Of a DNA stretch of 64,000 nt, positions 4,058 to 63,800 are shown piece by piece (the stretch's first letter is position 1; each line of letters opens with the position of its first letter). The notes under the pieces are model-generated. The model was not told where the DNA came from. It ran no database searches and saw only the letters and a list, made by a program, of their open reading frames with translations. Source of the DNA: a virus; the IMG/VR virus record IMGVR_UViG_3300042864_001285; one strand, written 5' to 3'. Position numbers and translations under genes: made by a program.

Positions 4058-4807
4058 TTAAACGGATGCCATCATAATGGCGGGATACTTTACAAAACCA
4101 GTGGTATCTTTTTTGGCTTTGCCTTTGGCATATAAGCCGATAACGGAGCCTTTTGGATCCAGAAAACGGAGGTCCGACTCATCGCCATTAAATACTGGCA
4201 TACTCAGATAATCAGCCGGCATTGGGAGGGTCTTTTTAATACCAAACACCACGGCTACATTATAACCTTGGGCAATAGCCTTTTCAACGTCCGAATCATT
4301 ACCATCGGCGGCTGAGAATGTCAGGTGATAATTGGGATAATCGGCAATTTTACGTCCGAGAATCTTGGTATAATCGTAGAATTGAATTTCAGGGAATGCC
4401 ATGAAAATGTTTTTATATTCCACGCCATTACGGATGGCGGCATACTTTTCAAAGGCTAGGTCCGAAGTGCCATTAAGGCGAATCACTGGAACCATATTGA
4501 TTTTAGCCGATTGTTTAATAGCCAATTCAATATCCTTGACCAGCCATTCCATAAAACCGGTGCGAGCCTCGAAAAACATTTGGGTTTTGCGGATTCGAGC
4601 CTGCTGGATAATGTTGGTGGTTTCACCTTTTTTGAACATACCGCCACGGCCAGCAAGGTTCAGGCAGGCAGCCGTGCAACCTTTGGTCCGTTTGGCGCAG
4701 GTCTCAAAACCGGACAGGTCGGCTGGAGCGAGGTGCAGGATGTAGGTATTGTAACCCTGAGCCAGGCCTTTGAGGACCTTAGGGTTACCAGTGGAGAGTA
4801 AATTCAT
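4058..4807 (-). CDS. hypothetical protein with N-terminal Cys cluster (C-x6-GC-x3-C)
   Basis: The 249-aa ORF in the GC-rich island has an AAAGG SD. It is driven by the minus promoter at 4838-4865. Confidence 0.6.
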   Translation of the reverse strand: MNLLSTGNPKVLKGLAQGYNTYILHLAPADLSGFETCAKRTKGCTAACLNLAGRGGMFKKGETTNIIQQARIRKTQMFFEARTGFMEWLVKDIELAIKQSAKINMVPVIRLNGTSDLAFEKYAAIRNGVEYKNIFMAFPEIQFYDYTKILGRKIADYPNYHLTFSAADGNDSDVEKAIAQGYNVAVVFGIKKTLPMPADYLSMPVFNGDESDLRFLDPKGSVIGLYAKGKAKKDTTGFVKYPAIMMASV

Positions 4808-4837
4808 TTTTTGACCTTTGCTTGATTTGATGGTTGG

Positions 4838-4865
4838 ATTATACCAGAACCAGAGGAAATGGCAA
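4838..4865 (-). promoter_or_regulatory. sigma70-like promoter TTGCCA-N16-TATAAT (minus strand)
   Basis: The reverse complement reads ttgccatttcctctggttctggtataat. Confidence 0.55.
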
Positions 4866-4897
4866 CCATCCGTGGAATAGTTGACCGGCTGGCTGGG

Positions 4898-5140
4898 TTA
4901 TTGTACGCCATGATACCGCAGGAGGGACCGACCTTGGTACCGTACATGGGAGAGGAGCCGCCCACCCATTACATTTTCAGGTCGGACCAAGCCTTGGGAA
5001 GGATGCAACCAAAGCACCGTTCCATCGGCATACACCTGGAAAATAGCCTCTTGACCATGGTACACCTCGGCGTAGAATCCGCCACGGGCTTTCCGGAGGT
5101 AGGAGCGGCAGTGCCGGAGGACTATATGGGGCTGGTACAT
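4898..5140 (-). CDS. small basic protein (80 aa)
   Basis: It lies about 24 nt downstream of the minus promoter at 5172-5199, with AAAAGG before the ATG. Confidence 0.3.
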   Translation of the reverse strand: MYQPHIVLRHCRSYLRKARGGFYAEVYHGQEAIFQVYADGTVLWLHPSQGLVRPENVMGGRLLSHVRYQGRSLLRYHGVQ

Positions 5141-5171
5141 TTTGCAACCTTTTCAATTTACTATGGAATGG

Positions 5172-5199
5172 ATTGTACCAGAACCAGCGAGAATGGCAA
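5172..5199 (-). promoter_or_regulatory. sigma70-like promoter TTGCCA-N16-TACAAT (minus strand)
   Basis: The reverse complement reads ttgccattctcgctggttctggtacaat, nearly identical to the copy at 5436-5463. Confidence 0.55.
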
Positions 5200-5214
5200 C
5201 CATCCTTTGGATAC

Positions 5215-5231
5215 TTGACCGGATTGGTCAA
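5215..5231. promoter_or_regulatory. palindrome TTGACC-N5-GGTCAA (operator-like)
   Basis: This is a perfect 6-5-6 inverted repeat. The same motif recurs at 6197-6213 and 6565-6581. Confidence 0.4.
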
Positions 5232-5428
5232 CCTTTGGCATGGGAGAGACCAACATTCCGAAGGGTGGCAGCCTTGGCTCCAAGGTTGGCGACCGAATAC
5301 TTGGCACCAGCCGACCAAGTCCGTTCCGACCTACGGGGGCGGGCAGGCTTGCAAATGGTAACCAATACACCGTCCAGCAGGTATTGGGCTTGGACCTTGC
5401 GGTCGGTTGGTTGAATTGATTTTATCAT
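5228..5428 (-). CDS. small protein (about 66 aa), candidate leaderless
   Basis: The ATG is exactly 7 nt (CCATTCC) after the minus-strand -10 TACAAT. Confidence 0.3.
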   Translation of the reverse strand: MIKSIQPTDRKVQAQYLLDGVLVTICKPARPRRSERTWSAGAKYSVANLGAKAATLRNVGLSHAKG

Positions 5429-5435
5429 GGAATGG

Positions 5436-5463
5436 ATTGTACCAGAACCAGCGAGAATGGCAA
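5436..5463 (-). promoter_or_regulatory. sigma70-like promoter TTGCCA-N16-TACAAT (minus strand)
   Basis: It is a near-duplicate of the 5172-5199 element and is divergent to the plus promoter at 5505-5532. Confidence 0.55.
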
Positions 5464-5504
5464 CCAATAGTTGACCGGAAGAATGGAGAACTATTGTGCT
5501 ATAT

Positions 5505-5532
5505 TGCCATTCTGGCCTGCTATGATATAATA
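5505..5532 (+). promoter_or_regulatory. sigma70-like promoter TTGCCA-N16-TATAAT
   Basis: The sequence reads ttgccattctggcctgctatgatataat and lies upstream of the 5563 gene. Confidence 0.55.
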
Positions 5533-5562
5533 ACATCATTGTAAACGAAACGAAAGTGAAAA

Positions 5563-5799
5563 ATGAAAGTAGTACAAACGTATTCAAGTGTGGAATGTAA
5601 TGAGTATTCTGTATTCAATTCTGACAATGTTCAGGTTGCATACTATATTGAACACTATGTTCACCCAATTGATGAAGAAGTATTAGAAACCCCGGTCTTC
5701 GAGATATATTATGATTACAATGAAGAAGACGATGAATACGAAAGTTCTCTTATTTCTGAGAATTTTGACGATATTCAGGAAATAATCGATTCGTTCTAA
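5563..5799 (+). CDS. very acidic small protein (78 aa, D/E/Y-rich)
   Basis: It follows its own promoter, then a terminator-like hairpin. Confidence 0.5.
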   Translation: MKVVQTYSSVECNEYSVFNSDNVQVAYYIEHYVHPIDEEVLETPVFEIYYDYNEEDDEYESSLISENFDDIQEIIDSF

Positions 5800-5805
5800 T
5801 CTAAT

Positions 5806-5826
5806 AACCCAGCAACGGGCTGGGTT
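5806..5826 (+). terminator. stem-loop aacccagc-aacg-gctgggtt fused to the next promoter (PeSL-like)
   Basis: An 8-bp stem sits immediately 5-prime of TTGCCT-N16-TATAAT. Confidence 0.4.
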
Positions 5827-5831
5827 ATCTC

Positions 5832-5859
5832 TTGCCTTCCCTGCTGGTTCTGGTATAAT
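5832..5859 (+). promoter_or_regulatory. sigma70-like promoter TTGCCT-N16-TATAAT
   Basis: The sequence reads ttgccttccctgctggttctggtataat. Confidence 0.5.
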
Positions 5860-5952
5860 TGGTACCATGATTCGAAGCGGAAGGCGGGGTGGACGTGGAG
5901 GCTGGGCGTCATAATAATAACCCAGCACTCCGGTCAAGTATATCCAAAATGG

Positions 5953-5980
5953 TTGCCAAACCTGCTGGAACCTGTAGAAT
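5953..5980 (+). promoter_or_regulatory. sigma70-like promoter TTGCCA-N16-TAGAAT
   Basis: An ATG follows 7 nt after the -10. Confidence 0.5.
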
Positions 5981-5987
5981 CCAAGAC

Positions 5988-6200
5988 ATGATGAACACAA
6001 AAACCTACACTGTAGAACACCACGACAAAACCATGGACTTCCATGTGATCCGCTGGTCCCCATTGTCCAACGGTGTCCACACTGGCGAGTCCGTAGAACG
6101 GTTCCAATGTGAGGATGAGGCCATGGAAGTGGCTCGAATCCTGAACCAAGCCGAGGAACTGAGCCTGTACCTGGACCAGTCCTGCGAATTTGATAGTTGA
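5988..6200 (+). CDS. small protein (70 aa), candidate leaderless
   Basis: The ATG lies 7 nt after TAGAAT with no SD. Its stop overlaps the TTGACC palindrome. Confidence 0.4.
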   Translation: MMNTKTYTVEHHDKTMDFHVIRWSPLSNGVHTGESVERFQCEDEAMEVARILNQAEELSLYLDQSCEFDS

Positions 6201-6220
6201 CCATTCCGGTCAAGTATTGG

Positions 6221-6248
6221 TTGACAATACTACCGGAACCTGTATAAT
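6221..6248 (+). promoter_or_regulatory. consensus sigma70 promoter TTGACA-N16-TATAAT
   Basis: Both hexamers are perfect. It is preceded by the palindrome TTGACC-attcc-GGTCAA at 6197-6213. Confidence 0.65.
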
Positions 6249-6280
6249 CCAATCCATATTGTGAAAGAAAAGGAAAGAAA

Positions 6281-6568
6281 ATGTCCCGTTTAATATCTGA
6301 GCGCACCGCCCATGCATGGTTTGATGAGATGCTGGACGACTGTGAAGGTCCGGTGGAACTGTGCGGAATGACCTATTCCGCTTCCGAGGTCCTGCGTGAG
6401 GTCGACCCGGTAGCCTATCGGTGCGGTTTTAACGACTACGTGGATTCCTTGACCGAGGAAGACGTTTTCGTGGAAGGTCTCACCGAGGATGAGATGGAGA
6501 CCGAGGATGAGGATGACGGTCAGCCGGACGAAGCCCAAGAGTGGGCGGATTTTGATGCTGATTGTTGA
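6281..6568 (+). CDS. highly acidic small protein (95 aa; C-terminal EDEMETEDEDDGQPDEAQEWADFDADC)
   Basis: It has an AAAGGAAAG SD and sits directly behind a consensus promoter. Confidence 0.55.
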   Translation: MSRLISERTAHAWFDEMLDDCEGPVELCGMTYSASEVLREVDPVAYRCGFNDYVDSLTEEDVFVEGLTEDEMETEDEDDGQPDEAQEWADFDADC

Positions 6569-6588
6569 CCTGTCCGGTCAAGTATTGG

Positions 6589-6617
6589 TTGCCAGAACCT
6601 GCTGGTTCTGGTATAAT
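6589..6617 (+). promoter_or_regulatory. sigma70-like promoter TTGCCA-N17-TATAAT
   Basis: It is preceded by the palindrome TTGACC-tgtcc-GGTCAA at 6565-6581. Confidence 0.55.
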
Positions 6618-6688
6618 CGATACCATATTCAAAAGCACCTCTCCCGGTGGTGTTTTTCAACATGGTATTGCAATTGAAAGGAAAATTA

Positions 6689-7569
6689 TGATTGAAGTGA
6701 AGTTTGTCGGTGGTAAATACGTTGCCAACATCAATGGCAAGGTGGTCAAGCGTGCCAAAAAGGAACACATGGACTATGTGATCCGCAAGGCTACAGGTGC
6801 CACCGGTGGTGCTCCTGTCAATGTCAAGGAGTCCCGCTTCACCATCAACCAGCGGTTCGGCTTTGTCTCCGACATGGTCGCCATGTTGGTGAAAGGTGAC
6901 CAGTCCTCGGTGGTTGTATCTGGTCCCGGTGGTCTCGGCAAGTCCCATACCGTCACCAAGGCACTGAATGATGCCGGCATGAAGGATGTCACCCTCCTGG
7001 ATGAATTCGAGGTCGGTGGCAAAATCAACACCACCAAGTCCTACCGTGTTATCAAGGGCTACTCCACTCCAAAGGGCCTGTACCGTACACTGTATGAAAA
7101 CAAGGACGGCGTGGTTGTTTTTGACGACTGCGACTCGGTGCTGAAGGATCCAGTGTCTCTGAACCTGCTCAAAGGTGCTCTGGACTCCTACTCCCGCCGT
7201 GTCATCTCATGGCGTGCCGACATGAAGGATGACGAACTCCCACAATCCTTTGAATTCAAAGGCCGGGTGGTGTTTATCTCTAACCTGTCCTCTGATTCGA
7301 TGGACCAAGCCATCATCACCCGTTCGATGGCTGTTGACCTGACAATGACAACGGAGCAAAAAGTGGAGCGTATGCGCCACCTGGTGTCCCTCCCAGAGTT
7401 TATGCCTGAGTATTCGAAGACAGAAAAGTCCGATGCACTGGACCTGATTGACAACCTCCAAGATGAGGTGAAAGAGTTGTCACTCCGTACACTCATCCAG
7501 ACCACTAAAATCCGCAAGTCTGCTGGTGCCAAGTGGAAAGACCTTGCAGAATACACCATCTGCGGTTGA
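6689..7569 (+). CDS. P-loop NTPase / AAA-type ATPase
   Basis: It has Walker A GPGGLGKSHT, Walker B VVVFDDCD and the SD GAAAGGAAAA. Its own sequence is GC-rich. Confidence 0.65.
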
Positions 7570-7590
7570 TTTTTACTATAAAGGAATGAT

Positions 7591-7723
7591 TATGACAAAC
7601 ACTCAAGCATTTGGTTGGAAGTATATGGTGAATTGGTTGGCTCGGAGAGAGCATAAAATTCCTGATATTACATTCACCGCCCGCACCACACACAAAATGA
7701 AAGCGACTAATGAGCAAATTTAA
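7591..7723 (+). CDS. small hypothetical protein (44 aa)
   Basis: An AAAGGA SD precedes the ATG. Confidence 0.25.
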
Positions 7724-7931
7724 AGACTTGATTATCGATATCGAATCGTGCATCACCAATGGTGATACGTTTGAGGACATTATTCAATTCGTTATGACCT
7801 CCACTGGATGTGACGAAAAGACAGCCACGGACCTGGTGTTCGAGGTCGAGGGCAACCTGTGCATGGAGGAGGAACGGAACTATTATGAGGACCAAATAGT
7901 GCTGATTGAAGGATTCTCCGAAGAGGAGTGA
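7710..7931 (+). CDS. small acidic hypothetical protein (73 aa)
   Basis: The ORF is co-oriented with its neighbours. Confidence 0.35.
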   Translation: MSKFKDLIIDIESCITNGDTFEDIIQFVMTSTGCDEKTATDLVFEVEGNLCMEEERNYYEDQIVLIEGFSEEE

Positions 7932-7947
7932 TGTTGCGTAGATGAGA

Positions 7948-7986
7948 CACCTGGTGGTTGCCAGGTGGTCTTTTTTAGAGTACAAT
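7948..7986 (+). promoter_or_regulatory. PeSL-like unit: terminator hairpin cacctgg-tggttg-ccaggtg + T6, with the -35 TTGCCA embedded in the hairpin and -10 TACAAT
   Basis: Stem-loop, T-run and TTGCCA-N17-TACAAT overlap. No ORF follows for about 400 nt. Confidence 0.5.
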
Positions 7987-8295
7987 GGATCCATTGGTTC
8001 GAACAGCAAGACTGGGGGTGGACGTAGAGGCTGCCTGATGGTTTTCCAATGGGCATCCAGCACCACTCTGAGACATTCTGAGACCCACACAGAGCAAAAC
8101 ATTCCAAACCGTGCTGGAACCCACTGGAACCCATTGGAACGTGCGGAAACGTGCTGTCACCTCTGAGACACTCTGTGAAATTTTCAGGCGTTGGCAGCCA
8201 GCAACTAAGACTAAATAGCAACCCAACACTTCCGACACACCGCGACACATCCAGCGACCTACTGACTGACTGGTCAGTTATTAAGGTCCTCAAAG

Positions 8296-8338
8296 ATATC
8301 CACAACTTATCCACAACTTATCCACACACTTATCCACA
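8296..8338 (+). repeat. four direct DnaA-box-like 9-mers (ATATCCACA, TTATCCACA x3) phased 11-12 bp apart
   Basis: Three exact matches to TTATCCACA begin at 8307, 8318 and 8330, and a one-mismatch copy begins at 8296. Confidence 0.6.
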
Positions 8339-8381
8339 GTCTCTTTTATACAACAGACGAAGTTTTCCGCAAAATATTCCA

Positions 8382-8409
8382 TTGCCATTCCTACCAGTAC
8401 CGCTATAAT
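8382..8409 (+). promoter_or_regulatory. sigma70-like promoter TTGCCA-N16-TATAAT
   Basis: An ATG follows 7 nt (ACCATCC) after the -10. Confidence 0.55.
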
Positions 8410-8416
8410 ACCATCC

Positions 8417-8659
8417 ATGACACAAACAAACACACCCAAACAATTCATTCAAGTCTCCGCACATAAGGACTCCAATAACTTTGCTCACTGGAGCAACCTG
8501 AGCCTAATGGCAAGCATGGGTCTGAATGCTGAACAAGCCCTCCGCCGTCTCCAGGCTATGGCTGATAACTATGCACTGAACGGATACACCATCGAATGGA
8601 TTCGGAATGATTTTGATTCGTTTGATGAAGAAATGTATGGAGATTTATTCAATGTATAA
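8417..8659 (+). CDS. hypothetical protein (80 aa), candidate leaderless
   Basis: It follows the promoter directly. From here onward the sequence is AT-rich. Confidence 0.5.
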   Translation: MTQTNTPKQFIQVSAHKDSNNFAHWSNLSLMASMGLNAEQALRRLQAMADNYALNGYTIEWIRNDFDSFDEEMYGDLFNV

Positions 8660-8867
8660 AGTTTCAAAACAAAACTATTTTCCCACTCTGAATTCTGCAT
8701 TAGAATCAGAAGGATTATTGGAATCTTGGGAACTTAACTTCCCTCCGCTCTCTTACGATTCTTCTTTCTCATATACTTTTGATGATGGTTCAAAGCACGG
8801 TCATTATGTTTCTCTCTATCGGGATTCTGATGGTCGTTATGAGCGCCCTGTTCATTATAAGCGGTAA
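8652..8867 (+). CDS. hypothetical protein (about 71 aa)
   Basis: The ATG overlaps the upstream stop. Confidence 0.35.
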   Translation: MYKVSKQNYFPTLNSALESEGLLESWELNFPPLSYDSSFSYTFDDGSKHGHYVSLYRDSDGRYERPVHYKR

Positions 8868-8870
8868 TTA

Positions 8871-9002
8871 TGTTTGATTTTTTTGGCTTTATACTTAATA
8901 TACTTAAAGCGGTTTTCATTTTTCTTTTTGTATTCATGTGGACAATCTTTATAATTCCCATATTTTACCATTTATTCAAATTCTTATTTCTCAATACTTG
9001 AC
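8871..9002 (+). CDS. 43-aa hydrophobic peptide (MFDFFGFILNILKAVFIFLFVFMWTIFIIPIFYHLFKFLFLNT)
   Basis: It overlaps the upstream stop by TAATTATG and is predicted to have 2 TM helices. It is not in the ORF track. Confidence 0.3.
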
Positions 9003-9030
9003 CGGACGGATGGAGAACTTTTCTAGTAGG

Positions 9031-9058
9031 TTGCCATTCTCTACGGAACCTGTATAAT
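9031..9058 (+). promoter_or_regulatory. sigma70-like promoter TTGCCA-N16-TATAAT
   Basis: TTGACCGG occurs at 8998-9005, just upstream. Confidence 0.55.
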
Positions 9059-9090
9059 TCTCTCTATTGAAACACAACAAGGACTTTTTT

Positions 9091-14895: not shown

Positions 14896-14975
14896 GTGTT
14901 GTACCAAAACAACAAAGGCAATCTTTATGGTTGCCTTTTTTTTGGTTTCTGGTATAATAGAGTCTTATTCAATGT
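14895..14975 (+). repeat. PeSL-like cassette, copy 2 (direct repeat of 13419-13490)
   Basis: The hairpin aaaggcaa-tctttatgg-ttgccttt is followed by a T-run, then TTGCCT-N16-TATAAT at 14931-14958. Confidence 0.65.
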
Positions 14976-24940: not shown

Positions 24941-25600
24941 ATGTTTACACATTGCCCACCAATGGTCCTTCCTGACCTAAAATCGGAAACACACTCTGAC
25001 GGTAAACGTTATTACACCTCTCCGAGCGGTAAGCGTTTACCATCGGTCACGACCGTTGTTGGTGCAATGAAAAAGCAAGCCATCATGGAATGGCGGAATC
25101 GTGTTGGTGAAGTAGAAGCCAACCGAATTTCAAAACTTGCCACCGGTCGTGGAAATCGTGTGCATGATCTTGCAGAACGGTATCTAAAGAATGAAAAGAT
25201 TGATTGGGTTCGTGAAATGCCTGATGCTGTGGAGATGTTTCGCACACTGATTCCACACATACAAAAAATCAATAATATACATTACATAGAACAAGCACTC
25301 TGGTCTGAACGCATCGGTCTGGCTGGTCGTGTTGACCTGATTGCTGAATGGGATGGTGTTCTATCGGTTATTGACTTTAAAACATCGAAAAAGATTAAGA
25401 AATCGGAAGACATTCAAGATTATTTTGCACAATGTACTGCATATTCTGGAATGTATGAGGAACATGTTGGTGTCTCCATTGACCAGATTGTGATTGTTAT
25501 GGCTGTGGAAAATGAAAGTCCACTCATTTTTATTGAGAAAACTGATGACCACATCGGAACATTAGTGGAACATATTGATTTTTACCATAAAAACTCTTGA
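24941..25600 (+). CDS. PD-(D/E)XK nuclease (RecB/Cas4-like exonuclease family)
   Basis: GRVDLI...IDFKTSKK gives the D...D/E-x-K motif, and a QxxxY motif (QCTAY) is also present. Confidence 0.55.
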   Translation: MFTHCPPMVLPDLKSETHSDGKRYYTSPSGKRLPSVTTVVGAMKKQAIMEWRNRVGEVEANRISKLATGRGNRVHDLAERYLKNEKIDWVREMPDAVEMFRTLIPHIQKINNIHYIEQALWSERIGLAGRVDLIAEWDGVLSVIDFKTSKKIKKSEDIQDYFAQCTAYSGMYEEHVGVSIDQIVIVMAVENESPLIFIEKTDDHIGTLVEHIDFYHKNS

Positions 25601-25636
25601 CAACTAAATAAAGAACCTTTATAATAAAGGTTATGG

Positions 25637-25867
25637 TTGTATGAAGCAACTAGAAACGGATTCAAGACGCGGGGGCAGTGCCCGCCAGGTCCACCACAAG
25701 GATTTTATGTGGATGATACAGATAAACTAAAAGAGTTACAAGAAAACTTGGCCAAGGATCTAGTTCAACTAGAACAGAATAAATCAGTAACTGAAAATCA
25801 GTTAGATGATATAACCGAAATATACTCTAAAGTTTATGATATCGTTTCCAAAATAAAATCTTTATGA
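25637..25867 (+). CDS. possible small coiled-coil protein (TTG start)
   Basis: There is no in-frame ATG near the start, so this is weak. Confidence 0.2.
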   Translation: MYEATRNGFKTRGQCPPGPPQGFYVDDTDKLKELQENLAKDLVQLEQNKSVTENQLDDITEIYSKVYDIVSKIKSL

Positions 25868-26003
25868 TGGGCCTGACACAGGATCGATTGGGTCAAGAGT
25901 ACAGAAGTGGACAACTCACCAGAGTAGGTGTAAAAACTAAATCAAAGTAAAAGCAAACGAAAGTCGCTTTTTGATGGCTGCTTGATAGCCATCTAGGGTT
26001 TTT

Positions 26004-26041
26004 GACAGTTTATCCTCGTAACAGAATTAAACTGTCTTTTT
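26004..26041 (+). terminator. rho-independent terminator (gacagttta...taaactgtc + T5) overlapping the 3-prime end of the GIY-YIG gene
   Basis: A 9-bp stem is followed by a T-run. Confidence 0.45.
26013..26027 (+). repeat. 15-nt direct repeat TCCTCGTAACAGAAT (left copy)
   Basis: An identical copy lies at 26491-26505. The pair brackets the GIY-YIG gene. Confidence 0.6.
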
Positions 26042-26416
26042 GGTATATTGATTGTTTGATGATTTACCCACTTTGGCCTTGGACATTTTCTGCAAAGTTT
26101 CTTTTGAGTAAATGTTCTTTTTGCCCTTATTCCAAGGTGATGAACCGGAAGGACGACCATTTTTTAGATTGTAGTATTTTTTACCGAATTCAGATTCTTT
26201 AATCATGCGAAGAAATCTAGCTTCCTCTTTTATAGCAGACTTCCTATCATTAAAGGTTTTGATTATTTTACGTTTGAAGTCGTTGGGTCTATATTGATGT
26301 TCTCCGTTAAACCAGCGTGATGAAGACACATAACTATCTGCTATGTCACCCTCATGCACACCAACATAGAACATTTTTCGGCTTTTGTCGAACCAGACGT
26401 ATAAAAAGTATTGCAT
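26027..26416 (-). mobile_element. free-standing GIY-YIG homing endonuclease (Seg-like) with C-terminal NUMOD/NKG-type DNA-binding repeats
   Basis: YLYVWFDKSRKMFYVGVH...R...E is the GIY-YIG core. SPWNKGKK is present, and the protein is 129 aa. Confidence 0.6.
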
Positions 26417-26490
26417 TATAATCCTCCAAGATATAATGTATTTAGCAAATGCGAACTTTCAAGAACGCATTTGCAGGGTTTCGGTTGGTT

Positions 26491-26505
26491 TCCTCGTAAC
26501 AGAAT
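26491..26505 (+). repeat. 15-nt direct repeat TCCTCGTAACAGAAT (right copy)
   Basis: It is identical to the copy at 26013-26027. Confidence 0.6.
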
Positions 26506-26532
26506 AACCAACCACCACAACGAAAGGAAATA

Positions 26533-27087
26533 ATGCAAAGTAAACCAATACTTTTAAGCATACTATTTTCCGCAGTCATTATAACGTTGTCAATGGTAAA
26601 TATAAACTTATACAATTTACCATTCAAGGCCAGTTTTAGTTCTCTAGACAGAGAAACACAAAAACAAATAACATGCCTTGCCGACAATATTTATTTCGAA
26701 GCCGCACATGAACCTCTCAAAGGTAAGAAAGCTGTTGCTTTTGTCACCTTCAATAGAGTCATGTCTGGCAACTATGCTGATGATATTTGCGGAGTAGTTT
26801 ATCAAAAAACCGGTAGTGTTTGTCAGTTCTCTTGGTATTGTGAAAGCAAACATACCAATAATCGCTTGACAATTAGAAGCACTTCATTGTATAATGAGAT
26901 TCAACAGTTAGCTGTCAATATGGTTGTCAATTTTGAACGTTATGAAGACGTTACAAATGGTGCAACATATTACCATGCAGACTACGTGAATCCTCAATGG
27001 AATTTAAAAAGGATAGAGCAAATTGGAAGACACATCTTTTACAGAAGCAACAAAGACAAAATTGACAGAAACAAAGGAATCATCTAA
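26533..27087 (+). CDS. SleB-like cell-wall hydrolase (Hydrolase_2 family) with N-terminal TM/signal anchor
   Basis: LADNIYFEA...AVAFVTFNRV...ICGVVYQ...CQFSWYCE matches the SleB catalytic-domain pattern. Confidence 0.55.
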   Translation: MQSKPILLSILFSAVIITLSMVNINLYNLPFKASFSSLDRETQKQITCLADNIYFEAAHEPLKGKKAVAFVTFNRVMSGNYADDICGVVYQKTGSVCQFSWYCESKHTNNRLTIRSTSLYNEIQQLAVNMVVNFERYEDVTNGATYYHADYVNPQWNLKRIEQIGRHIFYRSNKDKIDRNKGII

Positions 27088-31085: not shown

Positions 31086-32999
31086 TTAGTTTCCTATTCT
31101 CGGATTTAATTCACCCAATGGTGCTGAAGGTGATTGTATAGTTTTTTGTTTATTTGTAGTGTTGTTTTGAATAATCACTGGAGAACCACTTGCTGAACCT
31201 TGTGACATATCTTTTTTCATGTTGGCATTTTTCATAGAAGAATCATTTAATGAAGATCCAACAGTAGTATCATTTGTTTGTAATTTTGCTTTTGATGCTC
31301 GGTCGGCATCTAGAGCCACACCAACTTCTTCAGGAGAATTGTGTGCTTTATTACCACCAATACCAGAATAATACGATGAACCCTTTTTTAATTCAACCCT
31401 CACCTCTTTTATTGATCCGTCTTTTTGTTTAATCTTATCTATTCTATATGTATCAAAGGGCACACCAACTGAAGCAAACTCTTTTGAAAGTTGTAAAATT
31501 GCCTCATTTCTTGCATCTATTCCATTAGTTTTACCTTCTATGTAATTTGATACTTTTTTACGATTTATATCAATTAATCCTTTAGAAAACAAATGATCTT
31601 GCACAGTAGGTGTTAAGTAAGTGGTATTTGGATCTATCTTTAATTGTTCTATGAGACCTCGCATAGTTTTAGGTATAATTTGATACCTGCCCACTGCAAA
31701 TAAACGGTCTGGGTCATCGATTGGTAATTCTGATCTTCTAAGATATTCCGAAATTGTAATTTTACTAAAATCAACAGGTGCAATTGCTCCAAGAATTTTA
31801 TTATCTTTTGTACCTCTATTGTAGGCATTATATTCATTACCAGCAAAAGATTTTCCAGCAGAAGCGGTGCTTTCATATTTGGCAATATTGGTAGCCAAGG
31901 CTTCTTTTCCAGCGAGAACGGCTGTCACGGCGGCCGCACCAGTAATTACTTTTGAAGCCGATGGTTGTGTGGTTGGTATGGGTTCTTGTTTTTTTGCCGT
32001 ATCTGCGGCTTTTTTAGCATCAGCCGCATCCTTAATTCGTTTAGCATCAGCCGCATCTTTGGCTTTCTTGGCCGCATCAGCCGCATCTTTGGCTTTCTTG
32101 GCCGCACTGGCGGCATCAGCGGCATCCTTAGCCTTCTTGGCCGCACTGGCGGCATCAGCGGCATCCTTAGCCTTCTTGGCCGCACTGGCGGCATCAGCGG
32201 CATCTTTGGCATCTTTGGCTTTCTTGGCGGCATCGGCCGCATCTTTGGCATCTTTGGCTTTCTTGGCGGCATCGGCCGCATCTTTGGCATCTTTGGCTTT
32301 CTTGGCGGCATCGGCCGCATCTTTGGCCTGTGTGACTGGTTTTGGTGCTGTTTGTGCCGGCGGTGATGTTTGTGCAGGTGGTTTTGGTGCTGTTTGTGTG
32401 GGTGTGGAAGGAGTCGATGGGGTTGTTTCAGCCTTTTCTTGAACCTGTCGTTTCTTGGCTTCTTTAGCCATGTCTTTCATGGCTTTACGTTGTTTTTTTA
32501 TTGCATCCCTGAATACATTCATCACTTCTTTGTGATTATCTTCTTTCATGTATTCATTCATTTCATTATATGAATCGAATGTATCTTGTTCCTCTAAGTC
32601 CTTTTCCCTGGAATCTTGCATAAAGGACACAATTTTTTCTAATATTTCGGTGGCCTTTCCAGATCGACCACCACCCATACCTGAATTGAACTTCTCATAG
32701 TAGTTTGGGCGATGACTTCCAGTTTCATATTGTTTCTTGCCGGTGAAGTATCGAATGTCTTGTTTACTTCTACCCATGAGGCGACCAACGATTGCTGGTG
32801 CAAGTTTGCTACCACCAGTGAGGAACTTGGCGATATTCATCGGATCAAATCTCTCTTTCATGGCCATGGATTTGGCCATTGACCTATCTGACATAGTTCC
32901 ACGGAGAGATGAGACAATACCCTGGCCTGATGCCAGTCTATCTGTCATTAAATTAGCGAAGCCTTTTTTTCTTATTCTGGCGGCATCGTAGTAGTTCAT
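31086..32999 (-). CDS. tape-measure-like protein with TolA-like K/A/D 11-aa repeats and C-terminal SLT-like lytic transglycosylase motif
   Basis: About 20 AKKAKDAADAA repeats run from 31990 to 32340. AVGRYQIIPKT resembles the SLT GLMQIMPxT motif. It occupies the position of T4 gp29 relative to the hub genes. Confidence 0.5.
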   Translation of the reverse strand: MNYYDAARIRKKGFANLMTDRLASGQGIVSSLRGTMSDRSMAKSMAMKERFDPMNIAKFLTGGSKLAPAIVGRLMGRSKQDIRYFTGKKQYETGSHRPNYYEKFNSGMGGGRSGKATEILEKIVSFMQDSREKDLEEQDTFDSYNEMNEYMKEDNHKEVMNVFRDAIKKQRKAMKDMAKEAKKRQVQEKAETTPSTPSTPTQTAPKPPAQTSPPAQTAPKPVTQAKDAADAAKKAKDAKDAADAAKKAKDAKDAADAAKKAKDAKDAADAASAAKKAKDAADAASAAKKAKDAADAASAAKKAKDAADAAKKAKDAADAKRIKDAADAKKAADTAKKQEPIPTTQPSASKVITGAAAVTAVLAGKEALATNIAKYESTASAGKSFAGNEYNAYNRGTKDNKILGAIAPVDFSKITISEYLRRSELPIDDPDRLFAVGRYQIIPKTMRGLIEQLKIDPNTTYLTPTVQDHLFSKGLIDINRKKVSNYIEGKTNGIDARNEAILQLSKEFASVGVPFDTYRIDKIKQKDGSIKEVRVELKKGSSYYSGIGGNKAHNSPEEVGVALDADRASKAKLQTNDTTVGSSLNDSSMKNANMKKDMSQGSASGSPVIIQNNTTNKQKTIQSPSAPLGELNPRIGN

Positions 33000-57881: not shown

Positions 57882-60800
57882 TCAAATTACACCTCTAAGT
57901 TATGCCAACACGTTTGGTGATTGGGTAACTACAACCAATAAAGTGTTGGCGGAAACCAATGATATTGGTGCGAACAATTATACCAAAAATACCGGTACTT
58001 TTATTATCAATTCCGCCGGAACTGGTTTACAAGTTGCAAATGATGCAATTGTTCAAGGTTCTTTTCAAGTTACTGGCACCGGTTCTTCTGCGACAATTCA
58101 GAATAACTTAACAGTTTCTCAGGGCACAATATTTGCGGCGAACACAATAGGTCTTGGACTTAACGTTGCAGGTGTGGCTAACATCGCAAACTTACAGGTT
58201 CTAGGGACGGGCTTGAATAATGCAGGTGGTCCTAGCCTTTATGTTGCAAATAATACTATCCTTAATGGTAACACAACACTTGCAAACAATTTAGTTGTTG
58301 GTGGTAATACAAGAGTTGCCAACATTATTTCAAATACTTGGGTACAATCCGCAACACTTTATACATCAACAGCTTATACACAAAACTTAACTGCAAACTT
58401 AGAAATTAATGCTGGTTGGGCAAACGTTGCTGGTGCAGTTAACGCAAGAACAATTTCAGCTAACGTATCTGTTAACACAGCATCATTATATACATCCAGT
58501 AATGCGTATGTAATGTCGTTGAATTCGAATTCATACGTTACCACATCTAATGTATATTCATTGACGGCTAACGTTGATAGTTTATCGGCTAACGTTTTTG
58601 TTAACACCGCCACGTTATATACGTCTAGCAATGCATATGTAATGTCATTGAATTCTAATAGCTATGTTACAACAACGGAGGCATTCACTACAAGGCTTCA
58701 AGTTGGTAACATGGTTGCCAACACTGGTATTACAACTGCTGGTCTTGTTGCCAATAACACCGTGGTAACAGCCGGTTTAGTTGCCAATAACACCGTGGTA
58801 ACAGCCGGTTTAGTTGCCAATAACACCGTGGTAACAGCCGGTTTAGTTGCCAATAATACGGTCAACACAAACTTCTTAAGTGCTAATTCATTTGTTAACA
58901 CAGCATCATTATATACATCCAGTAATGCGTATGTAATGTCATTGAATTCTAATAGCTATGTTACCACATCCAATGTATATTCATTAACAGCCAACGTTAA
59001 TAGTGTGTCAGCTAACGTTTTTGTTAACACGGCCACATTATATACGTCTAGCAATGCATATGCAATGTCGTTAAACTCCAACAGTTATGTTACCACAACA
59101 GAAACATTTACAACCAGATTACAGGCTGGTAATATTGTTGCTAATACTGGAGTTATAACAACTGCCGTTGTTGCCAACACGGGCGTTGTGACCGCTGGTT
59201 TAGTGGCTAATAGTACCATTGTGACCGCTGGTTTAGTGGCTAATAGTACCATTGTGACCGCTGGTTTAGTGGCTAATAGTACCATTATAACTGCTGCTCT
59301 GGTTGCTAATACTGGTGTTAATACAAATTTCTTGAGTGCCAATTCTTTTGTCAATACAGCTTCACTCTATACATCTAGCAATGCATATGTAATGTCGTTG
59401 AATTCGAATTCATACGTTACCACATCTAATGTATATTCATTGACGGCTAACGTTGATAGTTTATCGGCTAACATTTTTGTTAACACTAGAATTGTTTATG
59501 CGGATACGGCAAACATTAAAGGTATTACTGCTAACTCATACGTTAACACTGGCATTCTCTATGCTAATACCGTAGATTCAACAACATTGGCCGCCAATAG
59601 TTCCATCACATCACTTGGAACTTTGAACGTTGCTGGATCGGCAGTTTTGGCTGGTCAATTGAATGTAGATTCCGTTTCCGCCAACACAATGGTGAACACA
59701 GCATCATTATATACATCCAGTACTGCGTATGTAATGTCATTGAATTCAAATTCATATGTAACAACAACAGAATCATTCTCCACCAGAATTCAAGGTGGAA
59801 ATATTGTTGCTAACACTGGATTAATTGGTGGTACAATCACGGCTAACACTATACTATCTGGTGGTTCTGCTAACATTGTTGGTATTGCTAACGCAAACAC
59901 TATGAACACTGGCACATTGTCTGCGGTGACAACAGTTATTGGTGGTACAATCACTGCTAACACACAACTAAATGCCGATTCGGCTAACATTGTTGGCCTA
60001 CTGGATGCCGGCTCCGCTAGAATTGCTACGATAATTGCCAACACATCCTTAGTCGGTGGTACAATCACGGCTAATACCCAATTGAATGTTGGTTCAGCTA
60101 ACGTAGTTGGTTTATTAGATGCCGGCTCCGCTAGAATTGCTACGATAATTGCCAACACATCCTTAGTCGGTGGTACAATCACGGCTAACACCACACTCTC
60201 TGGTGGTTCAGCAAACATTATTAACGCTATCAATGCCGCTTCGGCTAATATTGTTGGTATTGCTAACGCAAACACTATGAACGCTGGTTCAATTTCAGCA
60301 GTCACACATGTATATACGAACAGATTAACATCCAATGGTATAGCTAACCTACAATCTGCAAACGTACAATATATTTCTGTTGTTGATAACATTAACGTAA
60401 AGTTCTTGACTGCTAATACAGACATTTACACTGCAAATATCAACGTAAATAACATCTTTGCAAACAACTCAATTATTGCTGGTAAAGATTTAACTGTTAA
60501 AGGTAACTTTGTTATCGATGGTGGCACAGTTTATAACTCCGCAGAGTTTGACTTGTACGGTGCAACACCAATCACAGCATCACAAACCGCACAATTCGGT
60601 GTACAACGACAGTTATCGACAACTTCTGGTATAACACCAACAAACTTTGTTGGTGATGGAACTACAACTGTAACATGTAACCATGCCGGTGCAGTTACAG
60701 TAGCCACTGGACAATCCATAACAGTTGCAGGTGCAACAGGTACACAACAAACTAAATTGAATGGTACTTGGACTGTAACAAATGTAAACTCGACTTCATT

Positions 60801-63800
60801 TACTTTTGTTGTTACTGTTAATGTTTCAGCGGGAACACTTACAACAAATCTTGGAACAAGTACAATTGGTCCAGCTTTCTCACCAAATGCTTATATTAGA
60901 TTTGATAATGCTGATAGCATGTGGAAAATACGTGAGATTTCTGGTGCTAACCCTAACACATTTAATACAATCGTTACTGAAAAGTATACAGCTAACGTAA
61001 ACAATGCTGGTATTGTTCAGTTGAACGACACTGATACAAGCACAAGTACAACACAAGCCGCTACAGCAAACAGAATCAATCAGATGAGGTTGGATGTAAA
61101 TTCAAGAATTTCTTCCAACGTTGTTAACTCCGGTGCAGTTCTTGGTGTTGCACAACAGTATTCAACAACAATTACAGCCGCAGACCCTGGTGCAGGTTTC
61201 TTCCGACTGAACAATGCTACAATTTCTTCTGCAACCGCTGGTTACTTTGATAACCTTGACACATATGGTAATGATATTTCTACCATACTTACAGAATGGG
61301 GTCAATCAAACAGTGCAATCAAAGGTTACATCAGACTTTCTGTGTTTGGTTCACCAACATCGAAATATGCAGTATTTGCTATAGGTACAGTAACAGATTC
61401 AACAGGCTTCAGAACAGTTGTTCTCACATACGTTTCTGGTGTGGGCACATTCACTGACAATGATTTAGTGATGGTGCAATTCACTAGAGCAGGTAACATT
61501 GGACCACAAGGACCTATTGGACCAATCGGACCTATTGGACCAATCGGACCTATTGGACCAATCGGACCTATTGGACCACAAGGACCTATTGGACCACAAG
61601 GACCTATTGGACCAATCGGACCTATCGGACCACAAGGACCTATTGGACCCATTGGTAATACTGGACCACAGGGACCCATCGGACCAATCGGACCCATCGG
61701 ACCACAAGGACCTATTGGACCAATCGGACCTATTGGACCACAAGGACCTATTGGACCAATCGGGCCTATCGGACCACAAGGACCTATCGGACCCATTGGT
61801 AATACTGGACCACAGGGACCCATCGGACCAATCGGACCTATTGGACCACAGGGACCTATTGGACCAATCGGGCCTATCGGACCACAGGGACCTATTGGAC
61901 CTATTGGACCTATTGGACCACAAGGACCTATTGGACCTATTGGACCTATTGGACCTATTGGACCACAAGGACCTATCGGACCCATTGGTAATACTGGACC
62001 ACAGGGACCTATTGGACCTATTGGTAATATTGGACCACAGGGACCTATCGGACCCATCGGACCTATTGGACCTATTGGACCAATCGGACCTATTGGACCA
62101 CAAGGACCTATCGGACCCATAGGTGCACAAGGTACCACAAGTTTCAACGTATGTAATACAACAAACATTGTAAGTTGTATAAGTGGCACAGGCGGTGGAG
62201 GTACCAACAACTTCTTTGCTGGATTCTGTGCTGGCCGCTGCAACACCACTGGCGGCGACAGTAACAACTTCATTGGTCGCTGTGCTGGTTTCTTCAACAC
62301 CACCGGTAACTACAACACCTTCTTTGGTAACTCTGCTGGTCTCTGCAACACCACTGGCAGAGACAACTTCTTTGCTGGTCAATGTGCTGGTTTCAGCAAC
62401 ACCACCGGTAGCTACAACACCTTCATTGGTCGCTGTGCCGGCCGCAACAACACCACTGGCTCCCACAACACCTTCATTGGTCAAGGTGCTGGTCAATGCA
62501 ACACCACTGGCGTCAGCAACAACTTTATTGGCAGGTATGCTGGTCTCCGCAACACCGGGGGCGTCAGCAACAACTTCTTTGGTCGTTATGCTGGTCAATA
62601 CAACACAACCGGCAGCAACAACAACTTCTTTGGTCAAGATGCTGGTCTCTGCAACACCACTGGCTCCCACAACACCTTCATTGGTCAAGATGCTGGTCGC
62701 TTCAACACAGGGGGCAACCACAACAACTTTGCTGGTAATTGTGCTGGTCGCAGTAACACCACTGGCTGCTACAACAACTTCTTTGGTATCTGTGCTGGTG
62801 CAAGTAACACCACCGGCAGCTTGAACAACTTCTTTGGTCGTTGTGCCGGCCGCAACAACACCACTGGTAGTAACAACAACTTTTTTGGTTCATATGCTGG
62901 TCGCTTCAACACCACCGGTTGCAGCAATATTTTCATTGGTAACGATGCTGGTTACTGCAACACCACTGGCAGCTTCAACAACTTTTTTGGTTTCTGTGCT
63001 GGTTGCAAAAATACCACTGCTTGCCACAACACGTTTATTGGTTACCGTGCTGGTCTATACAATACCACTGGCGAACATAACTTCTTTGCTGGTTTCTGTG
63101 CTGGTTTCACCAACACCACTGGCAGCAACAACAACTTCATTGGTCGGAGTGCTGGTCTCTGCAACACCACCGGCAGTCACAACAACTTCTTTGGAGAAGC
63201 TGGTCGCTTCAACACCACCGGCAGCTACAACAACTTCTTTGGTTGCTGTGCCGGCCGCAACAACACCACTGGTAGTAACAACAACTTTATTGGTTATGAT
63301 GCTGGACGTTACAACACCACTGGCGCACATAACAACTTCTTTGGCCAAGCTGGTCGCTGCAACACAACCGGCAGCTACAACAACTTCTTTGGTGTCAATG
63401 CTGGTCTCAATAACACCACTGGTAGTAACAACAACTTTTTTGGCCAAAGTGCTGGTCGCTTAAACACCACTGGCCGCTACAACAACTTCTTTGGTTACTA
63501 TGCTGGTCGTAACAACACCACTGGCTGCCACAACACCTTCATTGGTTATGGTGCTGGTTGCTGTAACACCACAGGCGCCGATAACAACTTCATTGGTCAA
63601 TATGCCGGGCGTTGCAACACTACTGGCTCCAACAACTTATTATTTGGATGCGTTTCTGGTGTAGGCGCCGCTGGTCTTGCCAACATTACGACAGAATCTA
63701 ACCGTATTATTATGGGCAATTCTGCCCATACTTGCGCCCAAATACAAATTGCATGGACCGTAGTTTCTGATATTCGTGATAAGTGTGTATTCAGACCTGT

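Follow-up and report, generated by a model that had tools for sequence, protein, structure and literature searches.

The stretch of viral DNA analysed here (IMG/VR record IMGVR_UViG_3300042864_001285; 64,000 nucleotides (nt), hereafter the window) carries, next to a permuted two-piece transfer-messenger RNA (tmRNA) gene, a minus-strand gene for a predicted Seg-like GIY-YIG homing endonuclease. We consider it probable, at roughly 0.7, that this gene is a homing cassette which inserted in the tag-coding region of a tmRNA gene and which spreads together with a complete tmRNA gene. On this reading, the endonuclease gene would run antisense within the 3' portion of the permuted tmRNA gene. The complete tmRNA on its proximal side would be intact in its tag, helix 5 and terminal hairpin (the latter holding copy 1 of a 15-nt repeat), while the distal side would hold what is displaced from a second tmRNA allele, a 3' fragment made up of a decayed tag, AGGGTTTC and a hairpin with copy 2, still joined to the leader of the downstream SleB gene. 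The case draws on the tmRNA gene and its hairpins, the fold of the protein and the selection acting on it, the constant association of tmRNA and endonuclease, the empty and alternative alleles, and the mosaic ancestry of the locus. The source of the window is best read as a T4-like environmental myovirus encoding a permuted two-piece tmRNA.

The repeated 15-mer is a tmRNA hairpin loop

The 129-amino-acid (aa) open reading frame (ORF) of the endonuclease occupies 26416..26027 on the minus strand, between two plus-strand copies of the 15-mer TCCTCGTAACAGAAT, at 26013-26027 (copy 1) and 26491-26505 (copy 2). Its stop codon shares one base with copy 1, and 75 nt separate its ATG from the end of copy 2, which lies upstream. 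A sequence-only reading of the window had described a free-standing minus-strand GIY-YIG ORF, opposed to its neighbours and bracketed by this repeat, and these observations hold. Indeed, the neighbouring genes between ~21.4 and 29.5 kb are all on the plus strand, and the 64-kb window, searched with up to two mismatches, contains no matches to TCCTCGTAACAGAAT beyond the two copies (expected, 0.14), two or more matches being reached in 1 of 100 shuffles. A scan of the 64-kb window with the 14-mer core and three mismatches gave no further convincing match. The same reading had placed the ORF between a nuclease gene and SleB; it does not directly follow the nuclease gene, as the permuted tmRNA gene (25635-26036) intervenes.

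Each copy of the repeat is preceded by AGGGTTT and forms the 15-nt loop of a hairpin, and both hairpins fold as predicted. Copy 1 is the loop of the intact tmRNA terminal hairpin, with arms GACAGTTTA/TAAACTGTC (26004-26012 and 26028-26036), and copy 2 is the loop of the displaced hairpin, with arms GGTTGGTT/AACCAACC (26483-26490 and 26506-26513). Identical loops on different, self-complementary stems argue for a conserved structured element and not for an insertion scar. The duplicated unit is an imperfect segment of ~40-100 nt, which includes the resume codon, the tag remnant, AGGGTTT and the hairpin with its differing stems.

A scan of a viral contig collection found the exact 15-mer in at least 120 viral contig loci, nearly all in tmRNA genes; the sequence-only reading had taken commonness of the repeat elsewhere as an argument against an insertion-site duplication. 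Among the 120 matches listed, 111 have a contiguous stem of at least 6 base pairs (bp) around the motif. The listed matches differ widely in their arms (among them GGTAGGTT, GACAGGTT, GGTGGGTT and GGTAGCTT); on the complementary strand, GAAACCCT comes next. ARAGORN reports a permuted tmRNA with the motif at its 3' end in 45 of 60 scanned motif loci, ANDSRFALAA being one of the tags. Seven of the eight stem pairs change on both sides, with pairing retained at 100%, in 17 hand-picked modules (a module being the prefix, stem, loop and stem); this covariation count depends on the hand-picked set, and the unbiased stem evidence is the 111 of 120 listed matches. Hence, the 15-mer represents the terminal-hairpin loop of the permuted tmRNA. 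It is the same in both copies because this loop is strongly conserved while the stems are free to co-vary, and the earlier proposal of a duplicated regulatory sequence gives way to this primary identity.

A covariance model of the module (R1), built from a subset of fixed geometry, finds exactly two copies in the window, the distal one at 64.8 bits (present in the training set) and the proximal one at 41.7 bits with E = 7e-9 (absent from it). R1 is too narrow for modules of the L008 and L097 types (L-numbers denote loci on viral contigs used for comparison), and regular-expression scans were employed for those; a MAFFT alignment of the module variants was inconsistent with the structure. The loop may form a pseudoknot with the purine-rich prefix (25995-26016 and 26475-26494 in the window). 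Read by eye, the prefix/loop pairs are clade-specific and compensatory (AGGG at 25995-25998 with UCCU at 26013-26016 in the window, GAGUU/AACUU in the L008 clade and GGGGA/UUCCU in the L097 clade), and they hold in all of a 17-sequence consensus-type set, without change on both sides.

A transposon-style target-site duplication, in which the 15-mers would derive from a staggered cut and fill-in at insertion, would explain why identical direct repeats bracket the gene and why empty sites have a single copy. We consider this highly improbable. The 15-mer is a pre-existing tmRNA loop motif in more than 100 genomes; the adjoining stem arms differ between the copies and are each self-complementary, which fill-in would not give; and the duplicated unit reaches as far as AGGGTTT and the tag remnant. 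Furthermore, the 480-nt insert contains the 129-aa GIY-YIG ORF only, without a transposase or a tyrosine integrase, and GIY-YIG homing is not known to generate such duplications. The duplication that the sequence-only reading had proposed is thus upheld in that the repeats are tied to the endonuclease insertion, but not as a short target-site duplication, since the 15-mer is a conserved tmRNA hairpin loop.

The permuted tmRNA gene

The permuted two-piece tmRNA was identified at 25635-25985 by RF04321 (91.3 bits against a gathering threshold of 47; E = 5.7e-18), with all of model positions 1-213 matched. It is the only Rfam family found in the window, and the match ends at the tag stop codon. 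The alignment to RF01850, the older beta-proteobacterial two-piece model, runs through 26037, and copy 1 falls on this model's own 15-nt-loop hairpin. The terminal hairpin lies outside the RF04321 match because the new permuted model of Rfam deliberately leaves out the protruding 3' end (PMC11915505).

All parts of the gene are on the plus strand. It is preceded by a predicted sigma-70-type promoter, TTGACA-17-TATAAT (25597..25625), which matches the consensus at 12 of 12 positions, ends 10 nt before the tmRNA start and would be expected to drive the tmRNA. The acceptor piece (25635..25696), the 3' half of the tRNA-like domain, ends in CCACCA, corresponds to RF04321 positions 1-63 and is identical in L089 and L174-L179. 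The intervening segment (25697..25868) appears as an insert in the Rfam alignment, and in known two-piece tmRNAs this segment is removed on maturation; at ~170 nt, it is ~80 nt longer than its counterparts in L044 and L089 and is unrelated to both. The coding piece (25869..26036) is supported by RF04321 up to the tag stop, by RF01850 through the hairpin and by the proximal R1 match, and is 100% identical to L174/L176 up to 26036. It comprises the 5' acceptor strand GGGCCUG, the tag ORF (25953-25985), helix 5 (25973-25993), AGGGTTTTT (25995-26003) and the terminal hairpin (26004-26036).

The tag GCAAACGAAAGTCGCTTTTTGATGGCTGCTTGA encodes ANESRFLMAA*, starting with a GCA resume codon and ending in the typical ..AA-stop. 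The acceptor stem is of the alanine type, as GGGCCUG pairs with CAGGUCC-ACCA, placing G3 opposite U (G3-U70) and leaving a CCA end. The T-loop reads GGCAGUG and not the canonical UUCGANU, the T-stem, G3-U pair and CCA end all being intact. This T-loop is common to seven other viral contigs (L089, L174-L179); since these seven have the same sequence, it represents a lineage trait and not a sequencing error. ARAGORN made no tmRNA call on the window's gene, probably due to this T-loop. No group I intron ribozyme was detected, neither Intron_gpI nor any other intron family matching at 25600-26900 even at E ≤10.

A listed 76-aa ORF (25637-25867) overlaps the tmRNA gene and shows a weak match to phrog_1173 (E = 0.006). 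The spacer at 25697-25868 carries an open frame that is part of this ORF and might start at a GTG near 25709, preceded by AAGGA; it could be a small nested gene, or it could be due to chance.

A predicted Seg-like endonuclease maintained by selection

The assignment of the gene (26027..26416, minus strand) as a Seg-like GIY-YIG homing endonuclease is based on phrog_314, on the Pfam matches of its relatives, on the modelled fold and on the substitution pattern. The window protein matches phrog_314, annotated as 'homing endonuclease', with E = 3.7e-12. Among 14 close relatives, Pfam reports GIY-YIG in ten (best E = 2.9e-5) and NUMOD3 in nine; searching PDB sequences with a profile turned up no GIY-YIG match. 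Annotated homologues at 30-46% identity are Seg-like endonucleases of T4-type phages (RB16, GAP161 and others), while the database family to which the protein belongs consists of 147 environmental, essentially unannotated proteins.

The AlphaFold2 model has a mean predicted local distance difference test score of 81, rising to ~90 over residues 1-75. Its strands (residues 3-10, 15-22 and 47-55) and helices (34-42 and 58-71) follow the beta-beta-alpha-beta-alpha order of the GIY-YIG core. Foldseek returned the I-TevI catalytic domain as its top three PDB hits (probability 0.94-0.98, template modelling score 0.60-0.62), followed by Slx1 and BH0048. Residues Y6, Y17, G19, R43, E65 and N83 do not vary across 25 sequences with identities as low as 53%, and would correspond to the catalytic residues of I-TevI (two Tyr, Arg, Glu and Asn).

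The ratio of non-synonymous to synonymous divergence (dN/dS) is ~0.1, with a synonymous divergence (dS) of 0.6-0.9 to the nearest relatives, indicating a maintained and not a decaying gene. The last two or three codons and the stop lie in the complement of the 3' arm of the proximal hairpin (KTV* in the window, AS* in L008). The leader of the gene (26417..26446, minus strand) contains a ribosome-binding site (RBS), GGAGGA (complement of 26423-26428), and a late-promoter-like box, TAAATA (complement of 26439-26444), whose function is suggested by their sequences. This leader is 85-87% conserved with relatives despite the dS of 0.6-0.9, and L148 has a perfect TATAAATA at the corresponding position.

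A constant association with tmRNA and a displaced 3' fragment

In 27 of 27 distinct loci with enough flanking sequence, the genes for homologues that reach at least 50% identity stand tail-to-tail with a tmRNA tag; below 50% identity, the arrangement occurs in one of six. In loci found via the protein and not via the motif, the endonuclease gene as a rule lies between two modules (30 loci), while ~90 endonuclease-free loci possess one module. In every lineage inspected, a displaced tmRNA 3' fragment, from the resume codon on, lies beyond the start of the endonuclease gene.

In the window, this fragment begins with a decayed tag remnant (psi-tag; 26445..26474, plus strand), which now forms a perfect 9-bp hairpin, GCAAATGCG...CGCATTTGC, and is homologous to GCAAAC-...-TTCGCATT of canonical tags; the homology was traced through L097, L008, L148 and L042. 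The loop of this hairpin holds TTGAAA, which a promoter scan gives as a -35-like box of the endonuclease. The displaced terminal module follows (26475..26513, plus strand), consisting of AGGGTTTC and the hairpin at 26483-26513. This module runs contiguously into the SleB leader, and the two are 82-88% identical to their counterparts in L044, L178 and L179, which lack the endonuclease.

Other lineages retain more of the original sequence. The canonical endonuclease-free allele (L044/L002 type) reads ...GCAAACGAYNNNNNNTTCGCATTRGCAGCCTAAACRCTGNYTAGGGTTTC-hairpin. The fragment of L148, GCAAAC-ATTTCAG-TTCGCATTGGCAGCCTAAACGCTGACTAGGGTTTC-hairpin, equals canonical endonuclease-free alleles (for example L002) save for a replaced mid-tag GACTCACGT, while those of L042 and L159 retain ...GCATTAGCAGCCTAA-helix 5-AGGG. 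The clade at 73-88% identity, which includes the window, has an additional common deletion that leaves ...TTCGCATTTAC-TAGGGTTTC. In L097, the distal module and its flank are 92% identical over 98 nt to the endonuclease-free L072.

The left boundary at the resume codon, together with the lesion in codons 3-5, implies that the original insertion took place inside the tag-coding sequence. With moderate confidence only, we therefore propose a site inside the tag-coding sequence as the most likely cleavage target. Alternatively, the target may be the conserved terminal module, by analogy with the recognition of the T-psi-C motif by SegB (PMC2330249). At the endonuclease loci, the functional 3' end comes from a non-canonical clade and the displaced fragment from the canonical one, and in no locus of the compared set does the endonuclease lie directly behind an intact canonical tag. 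This pairing of clades would fit a canonical tag as the target, without proving it.

The conservation of the distal copy leads to the question as to whether it has a role of its own. A neutral segment of 23 nt (AGGGTTTC and the loop) is not expected to stay unchanged at a dS of 0.6-0.9, and distal modules mostly keep the exact loop on perfect, varied stems; this reflects either renewal from recipients at each homing event or a function of the module itself. Such a function might be that of a processing, stability or attenuation signal in the SleB transcript, of an insulator or operator for the endonuclease promoter, or of a decoy for a loop-binding factor, with loop identity resulting from independent selection on both copies. 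This would be compatible with the homing explanation and does not exclude it. In support of such a role, the module of endonuclease-free genomes is found 10-25 nt ahead of the next gene's RBS; across endonuclease lineages in which dS is 0.6-0.9 or saturated, distal hairpins retain the exact loop on perfect stems; the window's tag remnant has been improved to its perfect 9-bp hairpin by paired changes relative to L008; and the stretch of leader and tag remnant is 85-87% conserved. Repeated renewal of the distal copy from recipients predicts the same pattern, however, as the match of the L148 fragment to canonical native alleles illustrates, and the distal module is diverged or missing in L023, L121, L150 and L158. 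We regard it as rather unlikely that the distal module is a selected functional element and not a relic.

Empty, occupied and mosaic alleles

The sequence-only reading had called for a comparison with relatives lacking the insert, and this comparison yielded empty sites (L044 and L178) and a presence/absence polymorphism at a fixed position. L044 is the closest relative of the window's backbone, with amino-acid identities of 79% for the nuclease, 86% for the helicase loader and 68% for SleB. Its gene order is nuclease, tmRNA, a single module and SleB, and the leader between hairpin and SleB is as in the window's distal copy. The window's tmRNA allele itself occurs in seven further contigs, with 110 of 110 positions identical upstream, all without the endonuclease. 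L178 runs from one native module straight into SleB and represents a clean empty site, while L089, L177 and L179 carry a 74-aa plus-strand ORF between two modules. L174, L175 and L176 possess a single module with the window's proximal prefix AGGGTTTTT and stem, followed directly by the SleB leader. The L178 allele, those with the 74-aa ORF, the L174 type and the window thus make up at least four allelic states on one tmRNA background.

In comparisons over 40-nt segments, identity between the window and L044 is 70-90% for the nuclease gene and reaches 82-88% for the distal module and SleB leader, against only 60-80% in the mature tmRNA parts. The comparison with L174/L176 gives the converse, with flanks at 45-60% and mature tmRNA parts at 95-100% up to 26036. 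It follows that the complete tmRNA gene, with copy 1, forms a foreign block set in a backbone of the L044 type, and that copy 2 belongs to the SleB side. Such a mosaic is what co-conversion during homing would produce. An earlier idea, that the proximal hairpin was borne by the cassette and the distal one native, was dropped, as each copy is contiguous with its own flank and the two are tmRNA tails of different lineages. L104, and probably L056 likewise, was also rejected as a perfect empty site, since L104 proved to be an endonuclease-bearing contig with a truncated end.

In L089 (4087-4420; also L177 and L179), the two modules lie 302 nt apart around the 74-aa ORF, MSKTPFEIRMNLLEMAKDL..., which also follows the tmRNA in other relatives (L008 and L066); the second module of this type has a degenerate prefix, AAGAAGGTTTC, and is without a tag remnant. 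L115 (4627-4918, minus strand) has a native-type module and, 245 nt downstream, a second one with stem GGTAGTTTA/TAAACTGCC and loop TCCTCGTAACGGAAT; between them lies a 55-aa ORF with a signal-peptide-like N-terminus, and the endonuclease is absent. The sequence-only reading had regarded two repeat copies without the endonuclease as evidence against its proposal, and these four loci (L089, L177, L179 and L115) present just that arrangement, with other cargo in place.

These same loci raise the possibility of cassette shuffling, in which the terminal module (AGGGTTT and the hairpin) would act as a recombination joint and the endonuclease would be one cargo among others, its nuclease activity not being the cause of its placement. 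This would resemble the stem-loop-bounded mobile cassettes of T4-type phages. The four two-module loci without an endonuclease fit this scheme, as do the window's junctions, which coincide exactly with the boundaries of modules when compared with L178 and L174. Against this, only two kinds of other cargo were seen among ~117 endonuclease-free loci, compared with at least 30 two-module loci with the endonuclease; the tag remnant from the resume codon on points to insertion in the tag and not in the module; and the common homology amounts to only ~8 and 15 nt, broken by mismatched stems, with no chimeric mismatched hairpins seen. We therefore find shuffling of this kind unlikely to be the main process.

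In the homing explanation, which we favor, the predicted enzyme would cut tmRNA genes that lack the endonuclease, at a site in or close to the tag-coding sequence. The break would then be repaired with the donor as template, which would bring in the endonuclease gene together with the donor's functional tmRNA 3' end, and often the whole tmRNA gene. Trans-translation would be kept in this way, with the recipient's own tail left behind as the displaced fragment. This fragment and the tmRNA body on the other side could in turn provide the homology arms for the next homing event. A broader proposal, which we put forward tentatively, is that the phage tmRNA 3' end is a general hotspot of cassette exchange, where the endonuclease carries the module and tag remnant as portable homology arms and where duplication of the module may also capture unrelated cargo, as in L089 and L115.

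Several points weigh against the homing explanation. On its own, the window protein reaches 15.5 bits on PF01541 (E = 0.022), below the 22.6-bit cut-off, and the Foldseek E-value is weak, at 0.1. Given the non-canonical T-loop, the function of the window's tmRNA is not assured. Two modules also flank cargo other than the endonuclease (L089 and L115), so that duplication at the site does not strictly need the enzyme. L174-L176 have the endonuclease-linked hairpin without the gene, which could reflect endonuclease loss, a hairpin-only conversion tract or the state before insertion. A same-lineage empty site for the window's own backbone was not found in scans of viral or metagenome contigs. The placement of the cut in the tag region is deduced from junction positions, and cleavage is likewise predicted from sequence. 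Finally, the first argument for a cut in the tag region, which supposed that the tag was recoded for immunity (FLMAA, YRIAA or synonymous ALAA), was withdrawn as an ascertainment artefact. Requiring the exact loop had biased the initial set of endonuclease-free loci; scans for the variant loops showed that the FLMAA and AANDSRFALAA tags belong to natural tmRNA clades, which many genomes without the endonuclease also carry, and L178 has FLMAA without the gene.

Other features of the window and related contigs

At 4818-9067 and 14931-14958, the window contains promoter-like repeats of ~28-51 nt with the pattern TTGCC...N...GGTATAAT, in both orientations and in at least eight copies (families D10-D13). 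These units suggest an early-promoter cluster or cassette boundaries among small ORFs. Long tandem or interspersed repeats are found within large ORFs at 61390-63729 (periods of 9/18 and 51 nt) and 32005-32368 (9/30 nt), and repeats with units of 114-129 nt at 58441-59819 and 59807-60306; these repeat-rich ORFs probably encode repetitive fibre or collagen-like structural proteins.

Among the related contigs, L055 (6233-6631) and L061 (5013-5467) have permuted tmRNAs within arrays of 17-21 tRNA genes. Their tag is unusually long, at 27 aa (ANVNKTVTVSGKNVKFSARTAKEALAV), and ends in AV and not AA. In L038, a 167-kb viral contig, ARAGORN predicts within a 22-tRNA array a tRNA with anticodon CTA (4655-4744; labelled Pyl), a potential amber suppressor.

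Significance and comparison with known systems

If confirmed, these findings would add the tmRNA gene of environmental T4-like phages to the known homing sites, and would describe a natural case in which a free-standing endonuclease keeps the RNA gene that hosts it intact by means of a replacement 3' end and not of an intron. They would also offer a mechanism for the transfer of identical tmRNAs between phages whose flanking genes are ~50% identical, and would bear on the use of tmRNA phylogeny for inferring host switches, as was done for phage Melnitz. The enzyme itself, of 129 aa, would provide a compact GIY-YIG nuclease whose natural target is long and highly conserved. Should the 3' end of phage tmRNA genes prove to be a general hotspot, homing could proceed into any tmRNA-bearing phage whatever lies downstream, with replacement of the whole tmRNA between ~50% identical phages. 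In terms of annotation, the 76-aa 'ORF' and the 'intergenic repeat' are an RNA gene and its tail.

In the literature searched, the coverage of which was incomplete, no account of a phage tmRNA gene holding a free-standing GIY-YIG cassette was found, and the tmRNA-endonuclease arrangement occurs in no deposited phage searched. Megablast of the region against deposited phages gave no match, and in distant mode only the nuclease gene matched. The window's nearest deposited relatives are a pelagimyophage and cyanomyophages. Two-piece tmRNAs are known from marine and aquatic myophages, with 53 among deposited phages, 50 of them aquatic (PMC9004378). Like the window, OM43 phage Melnitz and the pelagimyophages are T4-like environmental myoviruses with a permuted ssrA gene behind an early-type promoter (PMC9004378). 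The Melnitz work reported a glutamine riboswitch and no endonuclease (PMC9004378), whereas the window has no riboswitch detectable by Rfam and does have an endonuclease cassette and a duplicated tail.

Group I introns occur in the T-psi-C loop of bacterial tmRNA genes, a few of them with LAGLIDADG endonuclease genes (PMC11915505). These, too, are homing-type selfish elements that exploit the conservation of tmRNA while preserving its function, as the window's cassette appears to do. They are self-splicing and reside in the tRNA-like domain of standard genes, whereas the element in the window, where no intron was detected, lies at the tag and 3' end of a permuted gene and would preserve function by a duplication instead.

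A structural parallel is offered by tyrosine-integrase islands in tmRNA (ssrA) genes, which regenerate the gene and leave a displaced fragment (Islander, PMC4383910). As in these islands, the 3' end is regenerated in the window, the original 3' end is displaced to the far end and the direct repeats are imperfect: the intact tmRNA ends at 26036, and the displaced tag remnant and module lie at 26445-26513. Unlike them, the window's element has neither an integrase nor an att-type identity block, measures 480 bp with a single gene, and is found in a lytic-type phage genome. The mechanism is likely double-strand-break repair (homing) and not site-specific recombination as in the ssrA islands.

A further counterpart is SegB of phage T4, which spreads itself and neighbouring tRNA genes (PMC2330249). 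The two differ in that the window's partner is a permuted tmRNA and not a set of tRNAs, and in that its endonuclease gene runs antisense and overlaps the terminal hairpin of the RNA. A displaced, partly decayed 3' end of the RNA gene is retained in the window, and its protein, with 129 aa and one NUMOD3-like motif, has an activity that is predicted from its sequence. Both are free-standing GIY-YIG enzymes of T4-type phages located among stable-RNA genes, and the window's protein shows distant homology to enzymes annotated as Seg-like. The recognition site of SegB includes a conserved RNA-gene motif, the T-psi-C stem-loop, and its homing carries neighbouring RNA genes along (PMC2330249), just as the tmRNA gene of the window appears to have been transferred together with its endonuclease.

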